Assembly (NCBI GenBank): GCA_016926955.1
Contig: JAFGNN010000055.1
Span: forward strand, 1-30,162
Reading direction: 5' to 3'
DNA length: 30,162 bases
From: Spirochaetales bacterium
GTDB lineage: Bacteria > Spirochaetota > Spirochaetia > Treponematales > UBA12059
Each line of letters begins with the position of its first letter. Position 1 is the first letter of the stretch. This document shows positions 4,104 to 25,000 of the stretch, one piece after another. The notes beneath the pieces were generated by a model that worked only from the letters and a program-made list of their open reading frames with translations, made no database searches and had not been told where the DNA came from. Both the position numbers and the translations under genes were made by a program.

Positions 4104-5339
4104 GTGCGCATACTCGACATGGCCTTGCGGAACCTGGGGCGGAACCACCGGCGCACGGCGCTGGCGGCGAGCTCCGTGTTCTTTGCCATCATGCTGATAC
4201 TCATCATGAACGGCCTCGTGAACGGCTTCATGGAATCGATGGTCCGCAACTACACCAAGAACGACTCGGGCCACGTGCATATCGCGACCGAGGGCTACCG
4301 CGCCCGCGAGCGCTTCATGCCCGTCGACGAGAACGTCCCGGACTCGACCGCGCTGGCCGCGGCCATCAAGGACCTGGACGGCCTCGAGGGCCGCGTGGAG
4401 ATCGTGGCGGAGCGCATCCGCTTCGGCACCCTGCTCTCTTCCGGACCCGCCACCAAGGCCGCCTTCGGCATGGCCGGCGACCCGGAGCTCGAGACCGAGC
4501 TGGTCATGCTCGACCGGAGCATCGTCGAGGGCCGCTACCTCACGGGCTCGGGCGACGCGGTGCTCGGCGCCGGGCTCGCGGCGGACCTCGGCCTCACGGT
4601 GGGCGACACGCTGAAGGTGGTGACCCAGCGCGCGGACTACGGGATCGGCTTCAAGCGCTTCACCATCGCGGGCATCTTCAAGACCGGCGTCAACACGCTC
4701 GACGGCAACCTCTTCCAGATCGGCCTCGACGACGCGCGCGAGCTCCTGGCCATCGAGGGCGCGCAGCAGCTGCTCGTCATGCTCGACCGTTCGGACTTCG
4801 CGCCGGAGGCGGCGCGGATCATCGAGGCGGCCCTGCCCGGGCTCGGCTTTTCGGGCCTGACGGCGCGACCCTGGCAGCAGGATTCGTTCGGCGGCTTCAT
4901 CACGCTCGTCTCGGGAGTGTACTGGTTCATGTACCTGATCTTCGCCGCGCTCGGCGCCTTCATCATCACCAACGTCATGATGATGGTCGTGCTCGAGCGG
5001 AAGCGCGAGATCGGCATCATGAAGTCGATGGGCATGCCGCGCCTCGAGCTGCTCGGCCTCTTCCTGCTCGAGGGCAGCCTCATCGGGCTCGCGGGCTCCT
5101 TCCTCGGCTCGGCCGTCGGCACCCTGCTCAACTGGGTCTTCTCGAAGATCGGCTTCGACATGACCGACGCGCTGGCCGGCTTCTCGTGGCCGCTCGACAA
5201 CATCATCTACCCGCGGGTCGACCTGCTGCAGGCCCTGCTTTTCGTGGGCCTCGGCACGCTCGTCGCCGCGGCCATGTCGTACCTGCCCTCGCGGAGCGCC
5301 TCGCGCATGGATCCCGTCGAGGCCATCCGCTCGGTGTAG
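4104..5339 (+). CDS. Second FtsX-family ABC permease, LolC/LolE-like (411 aa).
   Basis: A GTG start at 4104 is preceded by GGAGG (4094-4098); an alternative ATG lies at 4119. It has the same architecture as the upstream permease, with C-terminal motif ...ASRMDPVEAIRSV. Confidence 0.85.
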   Translation: MRILDMALRNLGRNHRRTALAASSVFFAIMLILIMNGLVNGFMESMVRNYTKNDSGHVHIATEGYRARERFMPVDENVPDSTALAAAIKDLDGLEGRVEIVAERIRFGTLLSSGPATKAAFGMAGDPELETELVMLDRSIVEGRYLTGSGDAVLGAGLAADLGLTVGDTLKVVTQRADYGIGFKRFTIAGIFKTGVNTLDGNLFQIGLDDARELLAIEGAQQLLVMLDRSDFAPEAARIIEAALPGLGFSGLTARPWQQDSFGGFITLVSGVYWFMYLIFAALGAFIITNVMMMVVLERKREIGIMKSMGMPRLELLGLFLLEGSLIGLAGSFLGSAVGTLLNWVFSKIGFDMTDALAGFSWPLDNIIYPRVDLLQALLFVGLGTLVAAAMSYLPSRSASRMDPVEAIRSV

Positions 5340-5352
5340 TCGACGATACCGA

Positions 5353-5474
5353 GAAACCACGGAGGCACGGAGACACGGAGGGAGGAGGGAGAAAACGGTC
5401 AAGAGCTTCCGATCACTCTTGAGCGAGAATTCCATCCTCCCTCTTTTCTCCCGATCTCCTTGCCTCCGTGGTTC
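5353..5474. repeat. Imperfect palindromic intergenic element of ~120 nt. The left terminus is GAAACCACGGAGGCACGGAG and the right terminus CCTCCGTGGTTC. It has a purine-rich arm (GGAGGGAGGAGGGAGAAAA), a pyrimidine-rich arm (TCCTCCCTCTTTTCTCCC) and a central TCAAGAG/CTCTTGA. It lies inside the operon between permease 2 and the LolA_like gene.
   Basis: The inverted repeats were read directly. The same terminal 19-mer recurs at 24364-24380 and 24398-24416, and inverted at 24522-24539. Confidence 0.65.
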
Positions 5475-5493
5475 TATTCTTCAAGGAGTTCAT

Positions 5494-6234: not shown

Positions 6235-7367
6235 AAGGCAACTCGGTCTCCGTCGCGGTTCTCGCGGCGGTCTTCGTCGTCGGCACCTTCCAGCTCGCTG
6301 CGCAATCCGGAGCGCCGGAGTTCGGCGGCGTTTTCTCCCGGAGCGACGCGGCCCTGTACGTTGCCGCCGGGGAAGTCGACTCAGGCGACTTCTCGTGGAC
6401 TGCGGCAAGCGCGCTCGAGCTCGCTCTCCGCGCGGGGGGCGATAGCGCGCGGGCCGAGGCCGCGTTCACGGCGACCGTGCTGAACGGCTCGGCGGCGGAG
6501 GCGATGATCGCGCTCGCGACCTCGATGTCGCTGCCGTCGGGTTCTCCTTTCGCCTCAGGCGGGGCGCTCGTCGTCCCGCTCGCGTCCGATCCGGCCTCCG
6601 TCCTGCTCCTCGAGCTCCGCTCGCTCCAGCTCAGGCTCGACCTGGGCGAGGCGCGGCTCCGCGCGGGCAGGCAGGTGGTCAATTTCGGGCGGGGCCAAGC
6701 CTTCAGCCCGGCGGACGTTTTCGCGCGGCGCGACCTTTCCGGGCTTTCCCCCGCGCGCGCGCCGGTGGACGCGCTCAGGCTTTCGGGCCCCTTCGGGCAG
6801 TTCGGCGGCTGGGACCTCGTGGCCGCGCCGCGCGCCGAAGCGGAGGACGGGACCTACGCGGCGCGCGCCTGGGCCTGGGCCTTCGGGGTGGATGGCGGCC
6901 TCATCGCGGGCCGCGACGGCGGACGCGGAGACTGGCTTGCCGCGGCGGACGTCCAGTTCGACCTCGGCGCCACCTTCCGCGGCGAGGTCCTGCTGCGGTA
7001 TTCAGATTCGGGGGACGCGCGCGTTTCGGCCATGGCCGGCCTCGACTGGTCGCTCGGCGACTTGCTCATGGGGGCCGAGTACTACCGGAACGGCGACGGC
7101 GCGGCGGGCGCGGTGCCGCTTTCGGGGGCTCCGGGCGCGGCTTCGGAACACTACCTTTTCGCGACGCTCGGCTGGCAAGCGGGCGATTTCGCGTCACTCT
7201 CCGCCAGCGCGCTCGCCGAGCTCGACGAAGGGCTCTGGGCGCCAGCCCTGGCCCTCACGGTAGACGCGACGCAGAGCGCCGACCTGGTCGTCGCCCTGCG
7301 GGGCCTCGCCGATTCTGGCGGCGTCGTATCGGCTGCCCTCGCGGCGACGCTCGAGCTTTCGTTCTGA
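6231..7367 (+). CDS. Putative outer-membrane beta-barrel protein (378 aa) with a signal peptide and a C-terminal Phe.
   Basis: The start overlaps the upstream stop (ATGA at 6231-6234). It has the signal MKGNSVSVAVLAAVFVVGTFQLAAQS, Gly/Ala/Ser-rich alternating segments and a terminal ...ATLELSF (an OMP-type C-terminal aromatic). No family was recognised. Confidence 0.55.
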   Translation: MKGNSVSVAVLAAVFVVGTFQLAAQSGAPEFGGVFSRSDAALYVAAGEVDSGDFSWTAASALELALRAGGDSARAEAAFTATVLNGSAAEAMIALATSMSLPSGSPFASGGALVVPLASDPASVLLLELRSLQLRLDLGEARLRAGRQVVNFGRGQAFSPADVFARRDLSGLSPARAPVDALRLSGPFGQFGGWDLVAAPRAEAEDGTYAARAWAWAFGVDGGLIAGRDGGRGDWLAAADVQFDLGATFRGEVLLRYSDSGDARVSAMAGLDWSLGDLLMGAEYYRNGDGAAGAVPLSGAPGAASEHYLFATLGWQAGDFASLSASALAELDEGLWAPALALTVDATQSADLVVALRGLADSGGVVSAALAATLELSF

Positions 7368-7448
7368 TCCGGCGCTGAAGGGCGGATGGCGCCGGCCTTG
7401 CCGCCACCCGCCTCGCGCCGGGCCGGGAAAGCGCGCTCTTCCCACCGC

Positions 7449-7856
7449 TCAGAGTCCGGAGTCCGGGCTCCATAGTCCCGCGACGAACTCGTCCACGGCG
7501 CCTTCGGGGCGGAACTCCGCCGCGAAGACCTCGGCCACCCAGGTCGACGCCTCGGGCAGTATGGAAAGCGCCGCCTCGAATCCGGCGTCGAGGGCACGCC
7601 GCCGCGCGGCGAGCGCGGAAACGCCGAGCGCGCCCGCCGCGACGACGGCGAGGGCGGCGGCGGCGAGCGCTCGGGTGCCGGGCATACGGCGAATCCGTAC
7701 CTCGCGCCGCCGCGACGCGTCCGCGGCCAGTTCGAGCGCCCCCGCTTCGGACGCGCGCGGCGTCCCTTCGCCCGCCAGGTTTCCGACGGCCGCCCGCAGC
7801 GCGGCGCCGAGCGCGGCGTCCCGTCCGTCCCCCAGAGCGATGCGTGTCCGTTTCAT
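7449..7856 (-). CDS. Putative single-pass membrane anti-sigma factor (135 aa), translationally coupled to the ECF sigma gene.
   Basis: The ATG at 7856-7854 overlaps the sigma gene's TGA (ATGA). It has one hydrophobic helix (ALAAAALAVVAAGALGVSALAA) and no zinc-binding anti-sigma motif. The assignment is positional. Confidence 0.45.
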   Translation of the reverse strand: MKRTRIALGDGRDAALGAALRAAVGNLAGEGTPRASEAGALELAADASRRREVRIRRMPGTRALAAAALAVVAAGALGVSALAARRRALDAGFEAALSILPEASTWVAEVFAAEFRPEGAVDEFVAGLWSPDSGL

Positions 7857-12353: not shown

Positions 12354-12364
12354 GAAGCAGGAAT

Positions 12365-12475
12365 CCAACGCCGAGACGCCGAGAACACCGAGACAAGAAT
12401 GAAAAAGGGGAAGGGTCATGACGACCCTTCCTTTTTTCTTCGTCCCGATCTCGGCGTCTCGGCGTCTCGGCGTTT
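12365..12475. repeat. Extended ~110-nt palindrome. A 28-bp inverted repeat (AACGCCGAGACGCCGAGA... / ...TCTCGGCGTCTCGGCGTT, with the CCGAGAC unit iterated) flanks the ileS terminator hairpin.
   Basis: The left arm is 12365-12393 and the right arm 12448-12475. The first 18 nt of the arms are perfectly complementary. Confidence 0.55.
12403..12440 (+). terminator. Rho-independent terminator of ileS. An A-tract precedes a GGGGAAGGGTC/GACCCTTCC stem with a TTTTTTCTT tail, so it is potentially bidirectional.
   Basis: It has a perfect 9-10 bp GC-rich stem, a 5-nt loop and a U-tract. Confidence 0.8.
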
Positions 12476-12500
12476 TCTTCTATTCTTTAACTCGTTCGGC

Positions 12501-12537
12501 CGCCATGGCGGCGGCAATTTTCTCTATAGTCTCCGCG
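12501..12537. repeat. 36-37-nt direct duplicate of the 3' end of the DtxR-like gene (CCATGGCGGCGGCAATTTTCTCTAT[A/G]GTCTCCGCG). The second copy at 12722-12757 encodes ...AETIEKIAAAME. The intervening ~180 nt carries four perfect GC hairpins.
   Basis: Direct comparison shows a 35/36 match. Copy 2 is in frame as the regulator's C-terminus, whereas copy 1 contains a stop in that frame. Confidence 0.6.
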
Positions 12538-12706: not shown

Positions 12707-13090
12707 TCAGCGGCGCCTGGCCTCCATGGCGGCGGCAATTTTCTCTATGGTCTCCGCGGAGAGGTAGTGCTCGATGCGGCAGGCGTCGCGCTCGGCGGTC
12801 TCGGGGCTGACGCCCAGGAAGTCGCGGAGGAAGCGGGTGAGCAGCTCGTGGCGCCTGCGGATCTCGGCGGCGTGGTCGAGGCCCGCGGGGGTAAGGGCGA
12901 CGTCGCCATAGGGCTCATGCACCACGAGGCCGCGGCGCTCGAGCTCATGCAGGGCCGTGTGCACCGAGGGCTTGGACACCGAGAGAACTCGCGCGATGTC
13001 GGTCACCCGCCCCTTCGCGCCCCGCTCCCGGATCGAGTCTATGGCCTCCAGGTACATCTCGAGGCTTTCGGATAGCCGCTCGTCCGCCAC
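12707..13090 (-). CDS. DtxR/MntR-family metal-dependent transcriptional regulator (127 aa; no C-terminal SH3-like domain).
   Basis: LSESLEMYLEAIDSIRERGAKGRVTDIARVLSVSKPSVHTALHELERRGLVVHEPYGDVALTPAGLDHAAEIRRRHELLTRFL is a DtxR-type wHTH plus metal-binding/dimerisation helix. The GTG start at 13090 has GGGAGG 7 nt upstream. Only the 3' 384 nt of the 504-aa track ORF is real. Confidence 0.8.
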   Translation of the reverse strand: MADERLSESLEMYLEAIDSIRERGAKGRVTDIARVLSVSKPSVHTALHELERRGLVVHEPYGDVALTPAGLDHAAEIRRRHELLTRFLRDFLGVSPETAERDACRIEHYLSAETIEKIAAAMEARRR

Positions 13091-22540: not shown

Positions 22541-24289
22541 TCAGCGAAGGAGGACGCCGACCTCGGGATCGAGCCGCTCTCGGAGCAGGCGGTCGATCTC
22601 CAGGGGCGAGCCGAGCGAGAGCGCTTCGTCCGCGAGGGCGCGGGCCCGTTCCATGGAGACGGATCGGACGAGCCTGCGCACCTCGGGGATGCTGACCGAA
22701 GACATGCTGAACTCGTCGAGCCCGAGCCCGAGAAGGAGGGCGGCGGCGTAGGGGTCCGAGGCCATCTCGCCGCACATGCCGGCGGGAATGCCGGCCGCGT
22801 GCGCCGAATCGATGGTGAAGCGCACGAAGCGCAGCACCGCGGGATGGAAGGGCTGGTGCAGGTAAGCCACCCGCTCGTTGCCGCGGTCGACGGCGACTGA
22901 GTACTGGATGAGGTCGTTGGTGCCGATCGAGAAGAAGTCGGAGTGGCGGGCCAGGATGTCGGCGGTCATGGCCGCGCTCGGCACCTCGATCATGATGCCG
23001 ACCTTGACGTCGGGATCGAAGGCCTGTCCGGCGGCCTTGAGCTCGTCCTTCGCCTCGCCGAGGGCATCGAGGGCCTCGTCCAGCTCGGCGGCGCCGGAGA
23101 TCATGGGGAACATGACGCGGACCTCGCCGTGCACGGAGGCGCGAAGGATGGCGCGGAGCTGGGCGTGGAAGACGTCCTTGCGGGAAAGGCAGAAACGGAT
23201 GGCTCGCCATCCCAGCAGGGGATTGCGCTCCTCGAGCTCGGCCAGTTCGGGCAGGGCCTTGTCGCCGCCGATGTCGAGGGTACGGATGGTGACCGGCTTT
23301 CCCGCCATGGTCTCGACCACCCGGCGGTAGGCGCCGTACTGCTCGTCCTCGTCGGGAGGCCCTCCCTCGCGCCCGAGGAAGAGGAACTCGGAACGGAAGA
23401 GGCCCACGCCGTCGGCGCCGTGCTTGAGGGCGCTCTCGGCCTCGTCCGGAACCTCGATGTTGGCCTTGACGAGGACGCGGCGGCCGTCCGGGGTCTCGGC
23501 GGGCAGGAAGGCGACGGCCAGCAGGTCGCGTTCGCGGGCGGCGAAGCGCGCGCCCTTGCTCAGGAAGGCGGAGACCGAGGACTCGTCGGGGCTGACTGTG
23601 ACGACGCCGGAGAATCCGTCCACGGCGAGCTTCGTGCCGGAACGGATCTCGCGGGCGGCCGAACCGAGGCCGAGCACGGCGGGTATCTCGAAGGCGCGCG
23701 CGAGGATGGCCGAATGGCTGGTCTTTCCGCCGGCCTCCAGCACGATGGCCTTGACCGCCTTGCGGTTCATGGTCATGAGGTCGGAGGGAAGCACGTCGCG
23801 CGCGACGATGACGCACTCCTCGACGAGGTCGCCGAGGCGGAAGCGCTCTTTCTGCAAAAGATGGCCGAGCACGCGGCTCACGACGTCGCGGATGTCGGCG
23901 GCGCGCTCGCGGAACATGGCCCCGTCAAGGCGGCCGAGCTTCTCGACCAGGTCGCGTTCGACCTGCAGTATCACCTGCTCGACGTTTCTGAGCGTGTCCT
24001 TGAGCGAGGCCTCGAGCTTGTCGATGACGTCGGGGTCGTCCATCATGAGGAGATGGGTGTCGAAGATCGCGCCCTTGTCCTCGCCCATCTCCTCGCGGGC
24101 CTTGTCCCGGAGCTCGATAATTTCGGTGCGGGCGCGCTCGAACGCCGCGAGGAGCCGTCGCCATTCTTCGGCGACATCCTCCTCCCGGATGCCGTAGTCC
24201 GGCACCGAGCCGTCCGCGTCGTCGACGAGGACGAAGGCCGGAGCCACGGCTATGCCCGGCGAAGCGGGAATGCCCCTGAGCTCCTTCAT
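22541..24289 (-). CDS. ptsI: Phosphoenolpyruvate-protein phosphotransferase (PTS enzyme I), 582 aa.
   Basis: Motifs include the N-terminal MKELRGIPASPGIAVAPAFVL, the phospho-His region GGKTSHSAILARAFEIPAV and the PEP-utilising FSIGTNDLIQYSVAVDR. The ATG is at 24289, and the first 65 aa of the track ORF are artefact. No ptsH is adjacent. Confidence 0.9.
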   Translation of the reverse strand: MKELRGIPASPGIAVAPAFVLVDDADGSVPDYGIREEDVAEEWRRLLAAFERARTEIIELRDKAREEMGEDKGAIFDTHLLMMDDPDVIDKLEASLKDTLRNVEQVILQVERDLVEKLGRLDGAMFRERAADIRDVVSRVLGHLLQKERFRLGDLVEECVIVARDVLPSDLMTMNRKAVKAIVLEAGGKTSHSAILARAFEIPAVLGLGSAAREIRSGTKLAVDGFSGVVTVSPDESSVSAFLSKGARFAARERDLLAVAFLPAETPDGRRVLVKANIEVPDEAESALKHGADGVGLFRSEFLFLGREGGPPDEDEQYGAYRRVVETMAGKPVTIRTLDIGGDKALPELAELEERNPLLGWRAIRFCLSRKDVFHAQLRAILRASVHGEVRVMFPMISGAAELDEALDALGEAKDELKAAGQAFDPDVKVGIMIEVPSAAMTADILARHSDFFSIGTNDLIQYSVAVDRGNERVAYLHQPFHPAVLRFVRFTIDSAHAAGIPAGMCGEMASDPYAAALLLGLGLDEFSMSSVSIPEVRRLVRSVSMERARALADEALSLGSPLEIDRLLRERLDPEVGVLLR

Positions 24290-24363: not shown

Positions 24364-24539
24364 GAACCACGGAGGCACGGCAGAGCCTTCCCAATGAGAA
24401 CCACGGAGGCACGGAGCTGGGGAGAAAAGAGGGAGCAAGAAAAGGTCGAGGTAAAAGGTGGGAAGGTCGACTCCTTCCCCACAACTTTCCTCCCTCCTCC
24501 CTCCTCTCTCTTCCCTCTTCCCTCCGTGCCTCCGTGGTC
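24364..24539. repeat. Second member of the GAACCACGGAGGCACGGAG-terminated palindromic element family. Terminal 19-mers sit at 24398-24416 and inverted at 24522-24539, with an extra direct partial copy at 24364-24380. It has a central GGAAGGTCGAC/TCCTTCC and a 38-nt pure polypyrimidine tract (24488-24525). It lies in the ptsI upstream region.
   Basis: This was read directly. The arms are purine-rich and pyrimidine-rich as in the element at 5353-5474. Confidence 0.65.
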
Positions 24540-24547
24540 TTCTTTGA

Positions 24548-25000
24548 CTAGTTGTCCCTTGCGATGTCGGTGGCGTAGAGCTCTTCGAAGCGGGCGCGGT
24601 GGCGCGACTCCTCGGCGGCGAGCCGCTCGAAGACCTCCGCGAGCTCGCCCGAACCCGCGGCCTCCGCGAAGGCCTTGTAGAGGCGCTCCGAGCGGTCCTC
24701 CTTGCGGATGCCCGCGCGGAGCACGTCCTGGTAGTCCGGATCCGGGCCGAGCTCCCTGTCCTCGACCAGATCGGAGAAATCGGCGCGGGATGCGAAGGCG
24801 GCGTTCCAGGTCGGCGCGCCTTTGACCTTGACCGCCTCGAGGGCGCGCGCGTGGCCCTCCTCCATGGCGGCGAGCTCGGCGAGCATGCCCTGCTGCGCGG
24901 CGAAATCCGAACGGCCGAGCAGGTCCTGGTAGAAGCGGATGGCCTCGCGCTCGCGGCCTATGGCTAAGTCGATCGCCTCGGAGAAGCTCCGGAAATCCAT
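24548..25000 (-). CDS. Rubrerythrin-like/ferritin-like diiron four-helix-bundle protein (150 aa), last gene of the complex-I-like operon.
   Basis: It has two E-x-x-H motifs (AAMEEGHARALE; AAEESRHRARFEEL) plus upstream Glu residues. Its ATG at 25000 is 2 nt after the fusion gene's stop. Confidence 0.65.
   Translation of the reverse strand: MDFRSFSEAIDLAIGREREAIRFYQDLLGRSDFAAQQGMLAELAAMEEGHARALEAVKVKGAPTWNAAFASRADFSDLVEDRELGPDPDYQDVLRAGIRKEDRSERLYKAFAEAAGSGELAEVFERLAAEESRHRARFEELYATDIARDN

Follow-up and report, generated by a model that had tools for sequence, protein, structure and literature searches.

What kind of sequence fills the gap between the last gene of a respiratory operon and ptsI in a Spirochaetales genome? 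The preliminary description of this locus placed there the second copy of a repeat family with purine-rich and pyrimidine-rich arms, and proposed that the repeat may insulate, terminate or regulate at the operon boundary, that it could form H-DNA and that it may propagate or recombine. These proposals were followed up in the whole stretch of DNA analysed, hereafter the window (30,162 nt), and in related loci from other genomes, some of which are cited below by L numbers. The element was indeed found between the stop codon of a rubrerythrin-like gene and the ATG of ptsI, in a 257-nt gap in a string of minus-strand genes, with a candidate ptsI promoter (read 24328-24300) placed between the element and ptsI. 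The neighbouring features are as follows.

24548-25000, minus strand: rubrerythrin-like gene, the final gene of an Mbh/Nuo-like operon; its stop codon (24548-24550) abuts the element, and its ortholog carries PF02915
24300-24328, minus strand: sigma-70-like ptsI promoter, TTGACA-17-TAGATT with TG before the second hexamer, outside the element and conserved in a close relative
22541-24289, minus strand: ptsI, starting at ATG 24289-24287

A longer ptsI reading frame starting at 24484 was rejected as an artefact, and the ATG at 24289-24287 was taken as the true start. The element itself, referred to as copy 2, has the following parts.

24397-24540, minus strand: gene-less hairpin element (copy 2), imperfect, 144 nt, with an interior that matches copy 1 in reverse complement
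24398-24416, plus strand: left terminal array GAAC-CACGGAG-G-CACGGAG with two heptamer units (exact match, array detection)
24417-24460, plus strand: purine-rich inner arm, holding a 17-nt pure purine run at 24419-24435
24461-24478, no strand assigned: apical stem-loop GGAAGG-TCGACT-CCTTCC, the palindrome GGAAGGTCGACTCCTTCC (sequence, folding)
24485-24525, plus strand: 41-nt run of pyrimidines only, mirror-like, which makes up the inner portion of the opposite arm (run scan)
24522-24540, minus strand: right inverted terminal array CTCCGTG-C-CTCCGTG-GTCT (motif match, array detection)
24364-24382, plus strand: orphan terminus without a partner arm, matching at 17 of 19 positions

The 19-mer GAACCACGGAGGCACGGAG is exact at 24398-24416 and has two mismatches at both 24364-24382 (plus strand) and 24522-24540 (minus strand), which bears out the description of a terminal motif occurring twice in direct orientation and once inverted. 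The same 19-mer is found at both ends of copy 1 (5354-5372, plus strand; 5456-5474, minus strand), and the window as a whole holds six matches with up to three mismatches against 0.02 expected from shuffled sequence. Two CACGGAG units lie at each end of copy 2, at 24402-24416 on the plus strand and at 24522-24536 on the minus strand, and an exact match to the 17-mer ACCACGGAGGCACGGAG covers 24400-24416 and also 24522-24538 on the minus strand. The terminus agrees with a cross-phylum consensus, (TTC)ACCACGGAG-G-CACGGAG, although the outermost bases are GAA/TTC in the spirochaete copies and TTC/GAA in that consensus. With inverted arrays of at least two units at both ends, copy 2 is the gene-less form of the heptamer-array family described below. 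It also has the traits of a miniature inverted-repeat transposable element (MITE), namely terminal inverted repeats, small size and no credible open reading frame (ORF) across the element.

The two arms (24392-24416 and 24522-24546, 25 nt each) are 88% complementary, and RNA of the intergenic region folds into a single long imperfect hairpin (-130.8 kcal/mol, z = -4.1). The central palindrome was present as described. Similarly, the pyrimidine tract is pure and mirror-like, but its length is 41 nt rather than the 38 nt first given; it is the longest purine or pyrimidine run anywhere in the window, and shuffling it gave a mirror symmetry as high as its own (16 of 18 positions per arm) in 22 of 2000 trials. 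An encoded low-complexity peptide as the source of the biased arms was considered and rejected, as the ORFs that cross the element are not conserved and a close relative has unrelated sequence there. The interior of copy 2 is oriented on the minus strand, in the direction of the flanking genes. Its orphan end is probably a remnant of an adjacent or earlier copy, since adjacent or nested hairpins are frequent in the family (for example at L020, L190 and L198).

Two other members of the family were located in the window.

5354-5475, plus strand: copy 1, with three CACGGAG units, between the stop of an FtsX-type permease gene (5339) and the start of a TP_0789-like gene (5494)
12364-12476, no strand assigned: third member, with three units of the variant CGCCGAG on each arm and an 18-nt perfect inverted repeat, directly after the stop of an ileS-like gene (12353)

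One arm of copy 1 reads CACGGAG-G-CACGGAG-A-CACGGAG and is mirrored on the other arm, and its fold is stable (-72.5 kcal/mol, z = -6.1). Copies 1 and 2 align over approximately 45 nt of the 3' arm at 87% identity, well past the 19-mer, so that the assignment of copy 2 to the family of 5354-5475 stands. The third member reads ACGCCGAG-ACGCCGAG-AACACCGAG on one side and CTCGGCGT three times, then TTTTCTTCTATTCTTT, on the other. Its neighbours are convergent genes, a T-rich run comes after it, and a 10-nt tail, TTCTATTCTT, is common to it and copy 1.

Several other repeated or poorly alignable stretches were observed in the window. A 40-nt direct repeat with 95% identity (12498-12537 and 12719-12758) is also present in the relative L123; the 12719-12758 copy is the 3' end of an Fe-dependent repressor gene, and 12498-12537 is a duplicate about 220 nt downstream that adjoins the third hairpin. 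Three direct copies of the 23-nt sequence GGTGTCACGAAGCTTCCGGGTGG, with 36- and 35-nt spacing, occupy 399-492 in the divergent region between an msrA-like gene and an operon with a GntR-family regulator, and may be operator sites. Further, the intergenic stretch 7366-7460 cannot be aligned with its counterpart in a 90% relative (L123, 6470-6615) although both flanks align, and no heptamer arrays were seen there.

The family has a regular build. Each arm contains two to four tandem heptamers of the form C-R-C-N-G-A-G, mirrored in the other arm; neighbouring units are spaced by 8 nt in 225 cases and by 9 nt in 81. Of 419 units, 418 have A or G at position 2; positions 1, 3, 5, 6 and 7 are fixed and position 4 is free. 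The units found are CACGGAG, CACAGAG, CGCAGAG, CGCGGAG, CACCGAG, CGCCGAG, CACTGAG and CGCTGAG. Between the arms lies a variable interior of 0-150 nt, and outside them there are a few extra paired bases, often with an A-rich left flank and a T-rich right flank. The end consensus can be written as aaaa.a.aa-TTC-ACCACGGAG-G-CACGGAG-g.-CACGGAG-Aaaa. The interiors of members are unrelated from genome to genome, and purine-rich interiors such as that of copy 2 occur in some lineages only (the window, L022, L047, L090 and L115).

A scan for the exact 17-mer in a collection with one genome per species returned at least 119 loci in at least 10 phyla. The matches listed come from Planctomycetota, Acidobacteriota, Gemmatimonadota, Verrucomicrobiota, Chloroflexota, Bacteroidota, Spirochaetota, Alpha- and Deltaproteobacteria, Nitrospirota and Kiritimatiellia, among others, and 69 of the 119 matches listed have an inverted partner (with up to two mismatches) 20-330 nt downstream. 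The 17-mer was also found on 72 IMG/VR viral contigs with 80 hairpins, often with several heptamer types per contig. Some of these contigs (L222, L229, L261 and others) have up to five hairpins each, with a handful of small ORFs, of no known family, placed between arms; no convincing Pfam family was found for five other small ORFs so placed on viral contigs. No description of the element was found in the literature searched by sequence strings, family accession and keywords. Nor was a description of the family-level pattern found in Rfam.

A link to a gene family came from the few inverted pairs among the 17-mer matches listed that are 530-670 nt apart. Three of these wide pairs (L076, L109 and L115) each enclose an ORF of about 123 amino acids that matches TIGR04256, 'GxxExxY protein', and PF13366 (E ~1e-43). 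The family is large (more than 8000 matches), with cross-phylum proteins about 70% identical; PF13366 is assigned to the PD-(D/E)XK superfamily fold, and in a survey of that superfamily its function is listed as unknown (PMC3424549). In another of the wide pairs (L002, 1616-2281) the inverted arrays surround a 132-aa DUF6335 (PF19861) protein instead of GxxExxY, so the arms are able to hold other small genes.

The association was then counted on the side of the gene, in a sample of 80 metagenomic GxxExxY genes, 57-69% identical to the query, of which 66 had at least 200 nt on both sides. A forward array upstream and an inverted array downstream, each within 200 nt, flank 44 of these 66 genes, a fraction of 67% that may not hold family-wide since the 80 loci are the closest relatives of queries taken from flanked copies. 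At least one array is present in 53 of the 66, and in control windows of 360 nt from the same loci an array pair occurred in 0 of 516 and at least one array in 11 of 516. The distance between paired arrays is bimodal, either 0-150 nt or approximately 380-520 nt. The arrangement also occurs in a cultured organism, as plasmid 1 of Gemmatirosa kalamazoonensis KBS708 carries a GxxExxY gene with complete CGCAGAG hairpins on either side. In Treponema saccharophilum pTS1 (L294, 1440-1930), a distant GxxExxY gene (41% identity) adjoins a Fic-family gene and has a simple inverted repeat on its two sides, ACACGGATTCG / CGAATCCGTGT, but no heptamer array.

Nuclease activity of the GxxExxY protein is predicted from its fold assignment. 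Its AlphaFold model is of low confidence (pLDDT 61), and the best Foldseek matches are all PD-(D/E)XK-fold proteins, none of them significant; PADLOC gave marginal Cas4 matches only, and searches of PDB sequences and of PHROGs with the protein returned no match. Protein similarity barely tracks heptamer type (63.8% versus 62.5% identity, p ~0.002-0.004), and co-evolution of protein and heptamer was set aside as an argument, the effect of about 1% identity being too small to carry it.

Based on these observations, the element upstream of ptsI is best explained, with a probability of roughly 0.6, as a gene-less, MITE/REPIN-like member of a palindromic repeat family associated with GxxExxY genes. 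Its full-length relatives have the same arms around a single GxxExxY gene of about 123 amino acids encoding a protein of putative PD-(D/E)XK nuclease fold, and the family would be mobile DNA. The nuclease, acting in trans, would recognize the heptamer arrays of gene-less copies, and copies would spread through cutting at the hairpin or cruciform followed by repair or insertion. Neither the window nor 158 kb of related spirochaete loci (188 kb of the lineage together) contained a GxxExxY ORF, and for this reason a trans-acting source of the protein in this genome is unproven. More tentatively, and with the odds somewhat against it, the hairpins and GxxExxY genes together could represent an unrecognized class of ultra-small (~450-600 bp) autonomous selfish elements spread across phyla, in which the ~123-aa nuclease would recognize the arrays in its own hairpin or cruciform arms and drive the copying of itself and of the far commoner gene-less hairpins.

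The relation between hairpin and gene may also be reversed. It is possible, though rather improbable, that the hairpins are a primary repeat spread by other means and act as hosts, with GxxExxY being a homing-type nuclease gene that copies itself into empty loops. Such a history would agree with the two discrete size classes and the predominance of empty over loaded copies (69 versus 4 among the motif-selected matches listed), with the DUF6335 gene and phage ORFs found between arms, and with the complete small hairpins that flank GxxExxY on each side in L199, L178 and Gemmatirosa. The viral contigs point the same way, being rich in hairpins while no GxxExxY gene was detected on those hairpin-bearing IMG/VR contigs, as does the weak link between protein similarity and heptamer type. 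However, locus L115 has one gene-bearing and three gene-less copies with a common outer stem and common arm-adjacent sequence, as expected of deletion derivatives, and no other mobilizing enzyme was seen near the hairpins. The data discriminate poorly between this scheme and the GxxExxY-associated mobile family proposed above.

The history of the hairpins was followed at the orthologous sites in spirochaete relatives, PtsI homologs having placed the window in Spirochaetota. The closest genome, GCA_018262985.1, has a PtsI 97% identical to that of the window; the two are colinear at 86-95% nucleotide identity, with the alignment interrupted at two of the hairpin sites (1 and 2) and twice more between genes. 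The three sites compare as follows, close relatives being those with 90-97% protein identity.

Site 1 (permease / TP_0789-like junction), window and 95% relative: CACGGAG in both
Site 1, three 90% relatives: same register and same spacer bases, with all units on both arms CGCCGAG
Site 1, another close relative: CGCAGAG/CGCGGAG
Site 1, distant relatives (60-63% protein identity): no hairpin, with a stop-start gap of 1-17 nt
Site 2 (copy 2): CACGGAG in the window; a GCGCCGAG hairpin with unalignable interior in the close relative
Site 3 (after ileS): CGCCGAG in both the window and the close relative, alignable at ~85% with ordinary divergence

Despite their unalignable interiors, sites 1 and 2 have flanks that are about 95% identical in close relatives; at site 2, identity with the relative resumes at the stop codon on one side and about 10 nt ahead of the -35 box on the other. 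Heptamer type at two of the three sites therefore follows the genome, not the locus. Independent point mutations cannot account for twelve coordinated substitutions in each element; the sequences at sites 1 and 2 point instead to replacement or homogenization between loci. Judged by sequence comparison, copy 1 is a lineage-specific insertion, because its site is empty in the relatives with 60-63% protein identity, and site 3 diverges, as far as its alignment goes, like ordinary vertically inherited DNA. Neither a target-site duplication nor another insertion footprint was visible at the window copies or at multi-copy loci, where exact boundaries are not fixed, and no filled and empty site pair at near-identity was found among the relatives compared. 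Still, the early suggestion that the element propagates or recombines is upheld by the presence of the hairpin in some relatives and its absence from others, by unit replacement at orthologous sites, by the many copies on single contigs and by the range of phyla.

Two relatives show further variation. At site 1 in L130 (3792-4027), a CGCAGAG arm faces a CTCAGCG arm, so that position 4 would form an A-A mismatch in every unit, and a second array (ACCGCGGAGGCGCGGAAGG) is nested within. A more distant spirochaete (L131, GCA_035914875.1) has no hairpin at site 1 and has CACGGAG-type hairpins at 4873-5034 and 6717-6732.

A host-selected signal at the boundary between the respiratory operon and ptsI, be it an intrinsic terminator, a 3' stabilizer, an RNase III site or an operon insulator, is an unlikely explanation of the element, for all that its position invites one. 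The fold is very stable, and the hairpin lies directly past the last stop of the operon and before an independent ptsI promoter. Further, the A-rich left and T-rich right flanks of the consensus resemble a two-way terminator, the member at site 3 has convergent neighbours and a T-rich run after it, and all close relatives retain some hairpin at sites 1 and 2. By gene context, however, the 69 elements fall into 40 co-directional, 12 divergent, 9 convergent, 2 inside genes and 6 at contig edges, counts that are approximate because in-house gene calls miss or miscall some genes in high-G+C DNA. Elements often fill very tight gaps, many of them inside operons, and 12 of 61 members lie between divergent genes. 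In the 39 co-directional cases no sign of RNA-level selection was found, either in fold bias or in G-U pairs relative to transcription: the better fold is on the sense strand in 18 and on the antisense strand in 21 (Wilcoxon p = 0.76), and there are 147 G-U pairs on the sense strand versus 131 on the antisense strand. This absence of strand bias is expected of a DNA element inserted in either orientation, not of an RNA structure selected in the transcript.

Other observations also stand against a dedicated signal. Distant relatives keep the operon at site 1 but have no hairpin, and across phyla the exact 17-mer is kept while interiors are unrelated, a pattern that a generic terminator would not require. 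Past copy 2, the transcribed strand continues with TTCTCATTGG, which is no proper U-tract, and a lenient terminator scan of copy 2 flagged just the terminal sub-hairpin, on both strands. No Rfam 15 family matched the window at the gathering score, and in 18 related loci only one tRNA did; sub-threshold matches were to generic long hairpins (microRNA precursors) and fell on both strands, one of them scoring 38 bits where the gathering score is 168. As the main explanation, the insulator, terminator or regulator first proposed is thus not sustained, given these contexts, the lack of a fold strand preference and the different hairpin in a close relative. A terminator-like side effect is still allowed, because of the A-rich and T-rich flanks and because sites 2 and 3 follow the last gene of an operon. 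The element would add a very stable stem-loop to the 3' end of the upstream operon transcript, just before the ptsI promoter, and as a side effect the hairpin may stabilize or end that transcript.

In terms of known mobile repeats, conventional REPs and REPINs offer a close comparison to the GxxExxY-associated family. As in REPIN/REPtron systems, gene-less intergenic hairpins far outnumber the few copies that flank one small enzyme gene, and the REPtron layout, with a RAYT gene between REPs, parallels the arms around GxxExxY. REPs can also insert occasionally inside genes and affect transcripts (PMC3733652). One such copy in our set is a 116-nt CACGGAG hairpin (L115, 4842-4957) in frame within a 1247-aa methyltransferase-like ORF, where about 40 extra residues are read through between the LDPACGSGHFL motif and the next conserved block. 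Despite these similarities, it is very unlikely that the element is a conventional REP/REPIN with a RAYT (IS200/IS605-type tyrosine transposase) as its mobilizing enzyme, or a MITE that descends from an insertion sequence of the classical DDE type. A short, gene-less, intergenic, many-copy hairpin repeat is what either would give, and copies inside genes have been reported for both REPs and RPEs (PMC3733652). Nevertheless, a REP unit is a short palindrome tagged at one end by GTAG or CGTC (PMC3733652), whereas the family ends are arrays of 7-nt units with 8-9 nt spacing, the arms being tandem heptamers instead of small palindromes and the termini, AGAACCACGGAGG and CCTCCGTGGTCT, having neither tag. 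The recurrently enclosed gene encodes a ~123-aa PD-(D/E)XK-fold protein (PF13366), neither a DDE transposase nor the HUH tyrosine transposase of REPtrons; no transposase was found among the window genes or their orthologs, and no target-site duplication was seen. In addition, REP sequences are for the most part particular to a species, but the exact terminus of this family recurs in many phyla.

Bacterial MITEs such as Correia elements and Rickettsia palindromic elements are similar to the family in being 60-300 nt long, with terminal inverted repeats and no gene, and in lying between genes or sometimes in frame within coding sequence. Correia- and Rickettsia-type elements form RNA stem-loops able to end or process transcripts. 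The family differs from them in having no visible target-site duplication and no apparent parent insertion sequence with a known transposase, and its terminal repeats are internally repetitive, with interiors unrelated between genomes. Full-length relatives with matching ends encode a protein with a predicted PD-(D/E)XK fold, not a demonstrated transposase.

Least probable of all is regulation or insulation of the locus by H-DNA (an intramolecular triplex) formed by the polypurine/polypyrimidine arms: a 41-nt mirror-like pure pyrimidine tract is highly improbable from composition alone and makes such a structure physically possible, as the preliminary description held, but the tract is one hairpin arm and the complement of the other, most members have no purine-rich interior and the site 2 hairpin of the close relative has no polypyrimidine tract, so that H-DNA is not supported as the primary explanation.

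Gene-bearing members of the GxxExxY-associated family also have counterparts outside the REP and MITE groups. The intervening sequences of 23S rRNA that carry an ORF (e.g. the Coxiella IVS with S23p) are small selfish long-stem insertions with one small ORF of unknown function in the loop (PMC4990558), and they share with gene-bearing members a long stem and a single small loop ORF. Such intervening sequences, however, lie in rRNA helices and are removed from RNA, whereas the family lies between or within protein-coding genes, and their ORF encodes a four-helix bundle (PF05635) of another family than GxxExxY. Free-standing homing endonuclease genes are similar to GxxExxY in being very small nuclease-fold genes with a patchy cross-phylum spread and a defined sequence context; the inverted arrays and abundant gene-less hairpins are atypical for them, and in GxxExxY the nuclease activity and the recognition site are putative. 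Eukaryotic Foldback transposons have long inverted arms of short tandem repeats, variable or absent interiors and sometimes a coding region. The likeness to the present family is in architecture only, Foldback elements being eukaryotic, much larger and possessed of an unrelated transposase.

Recognition of this family has consequences for annotation as well as for the biology of the locus. Hairpins of this kind abound in the genomes of soil and water bacteria and give rise there to spurious ORFs and odd intergenic regions; recognizing them would improve annotation. In particular, a purpose-built regulatory site is not the right reading of the repeat upstream of ptsI, although the hairpin may plausibly affect the 3' end of the upstream transcript as a side effect. 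The conserved candidate DNA partner, the inverted heptamer arrays, makes the function of PF13366 directly testable by biochemical means. If the selfish-element reading is true, it would give this large uncharacterized protein family both a function and a DNA partner.
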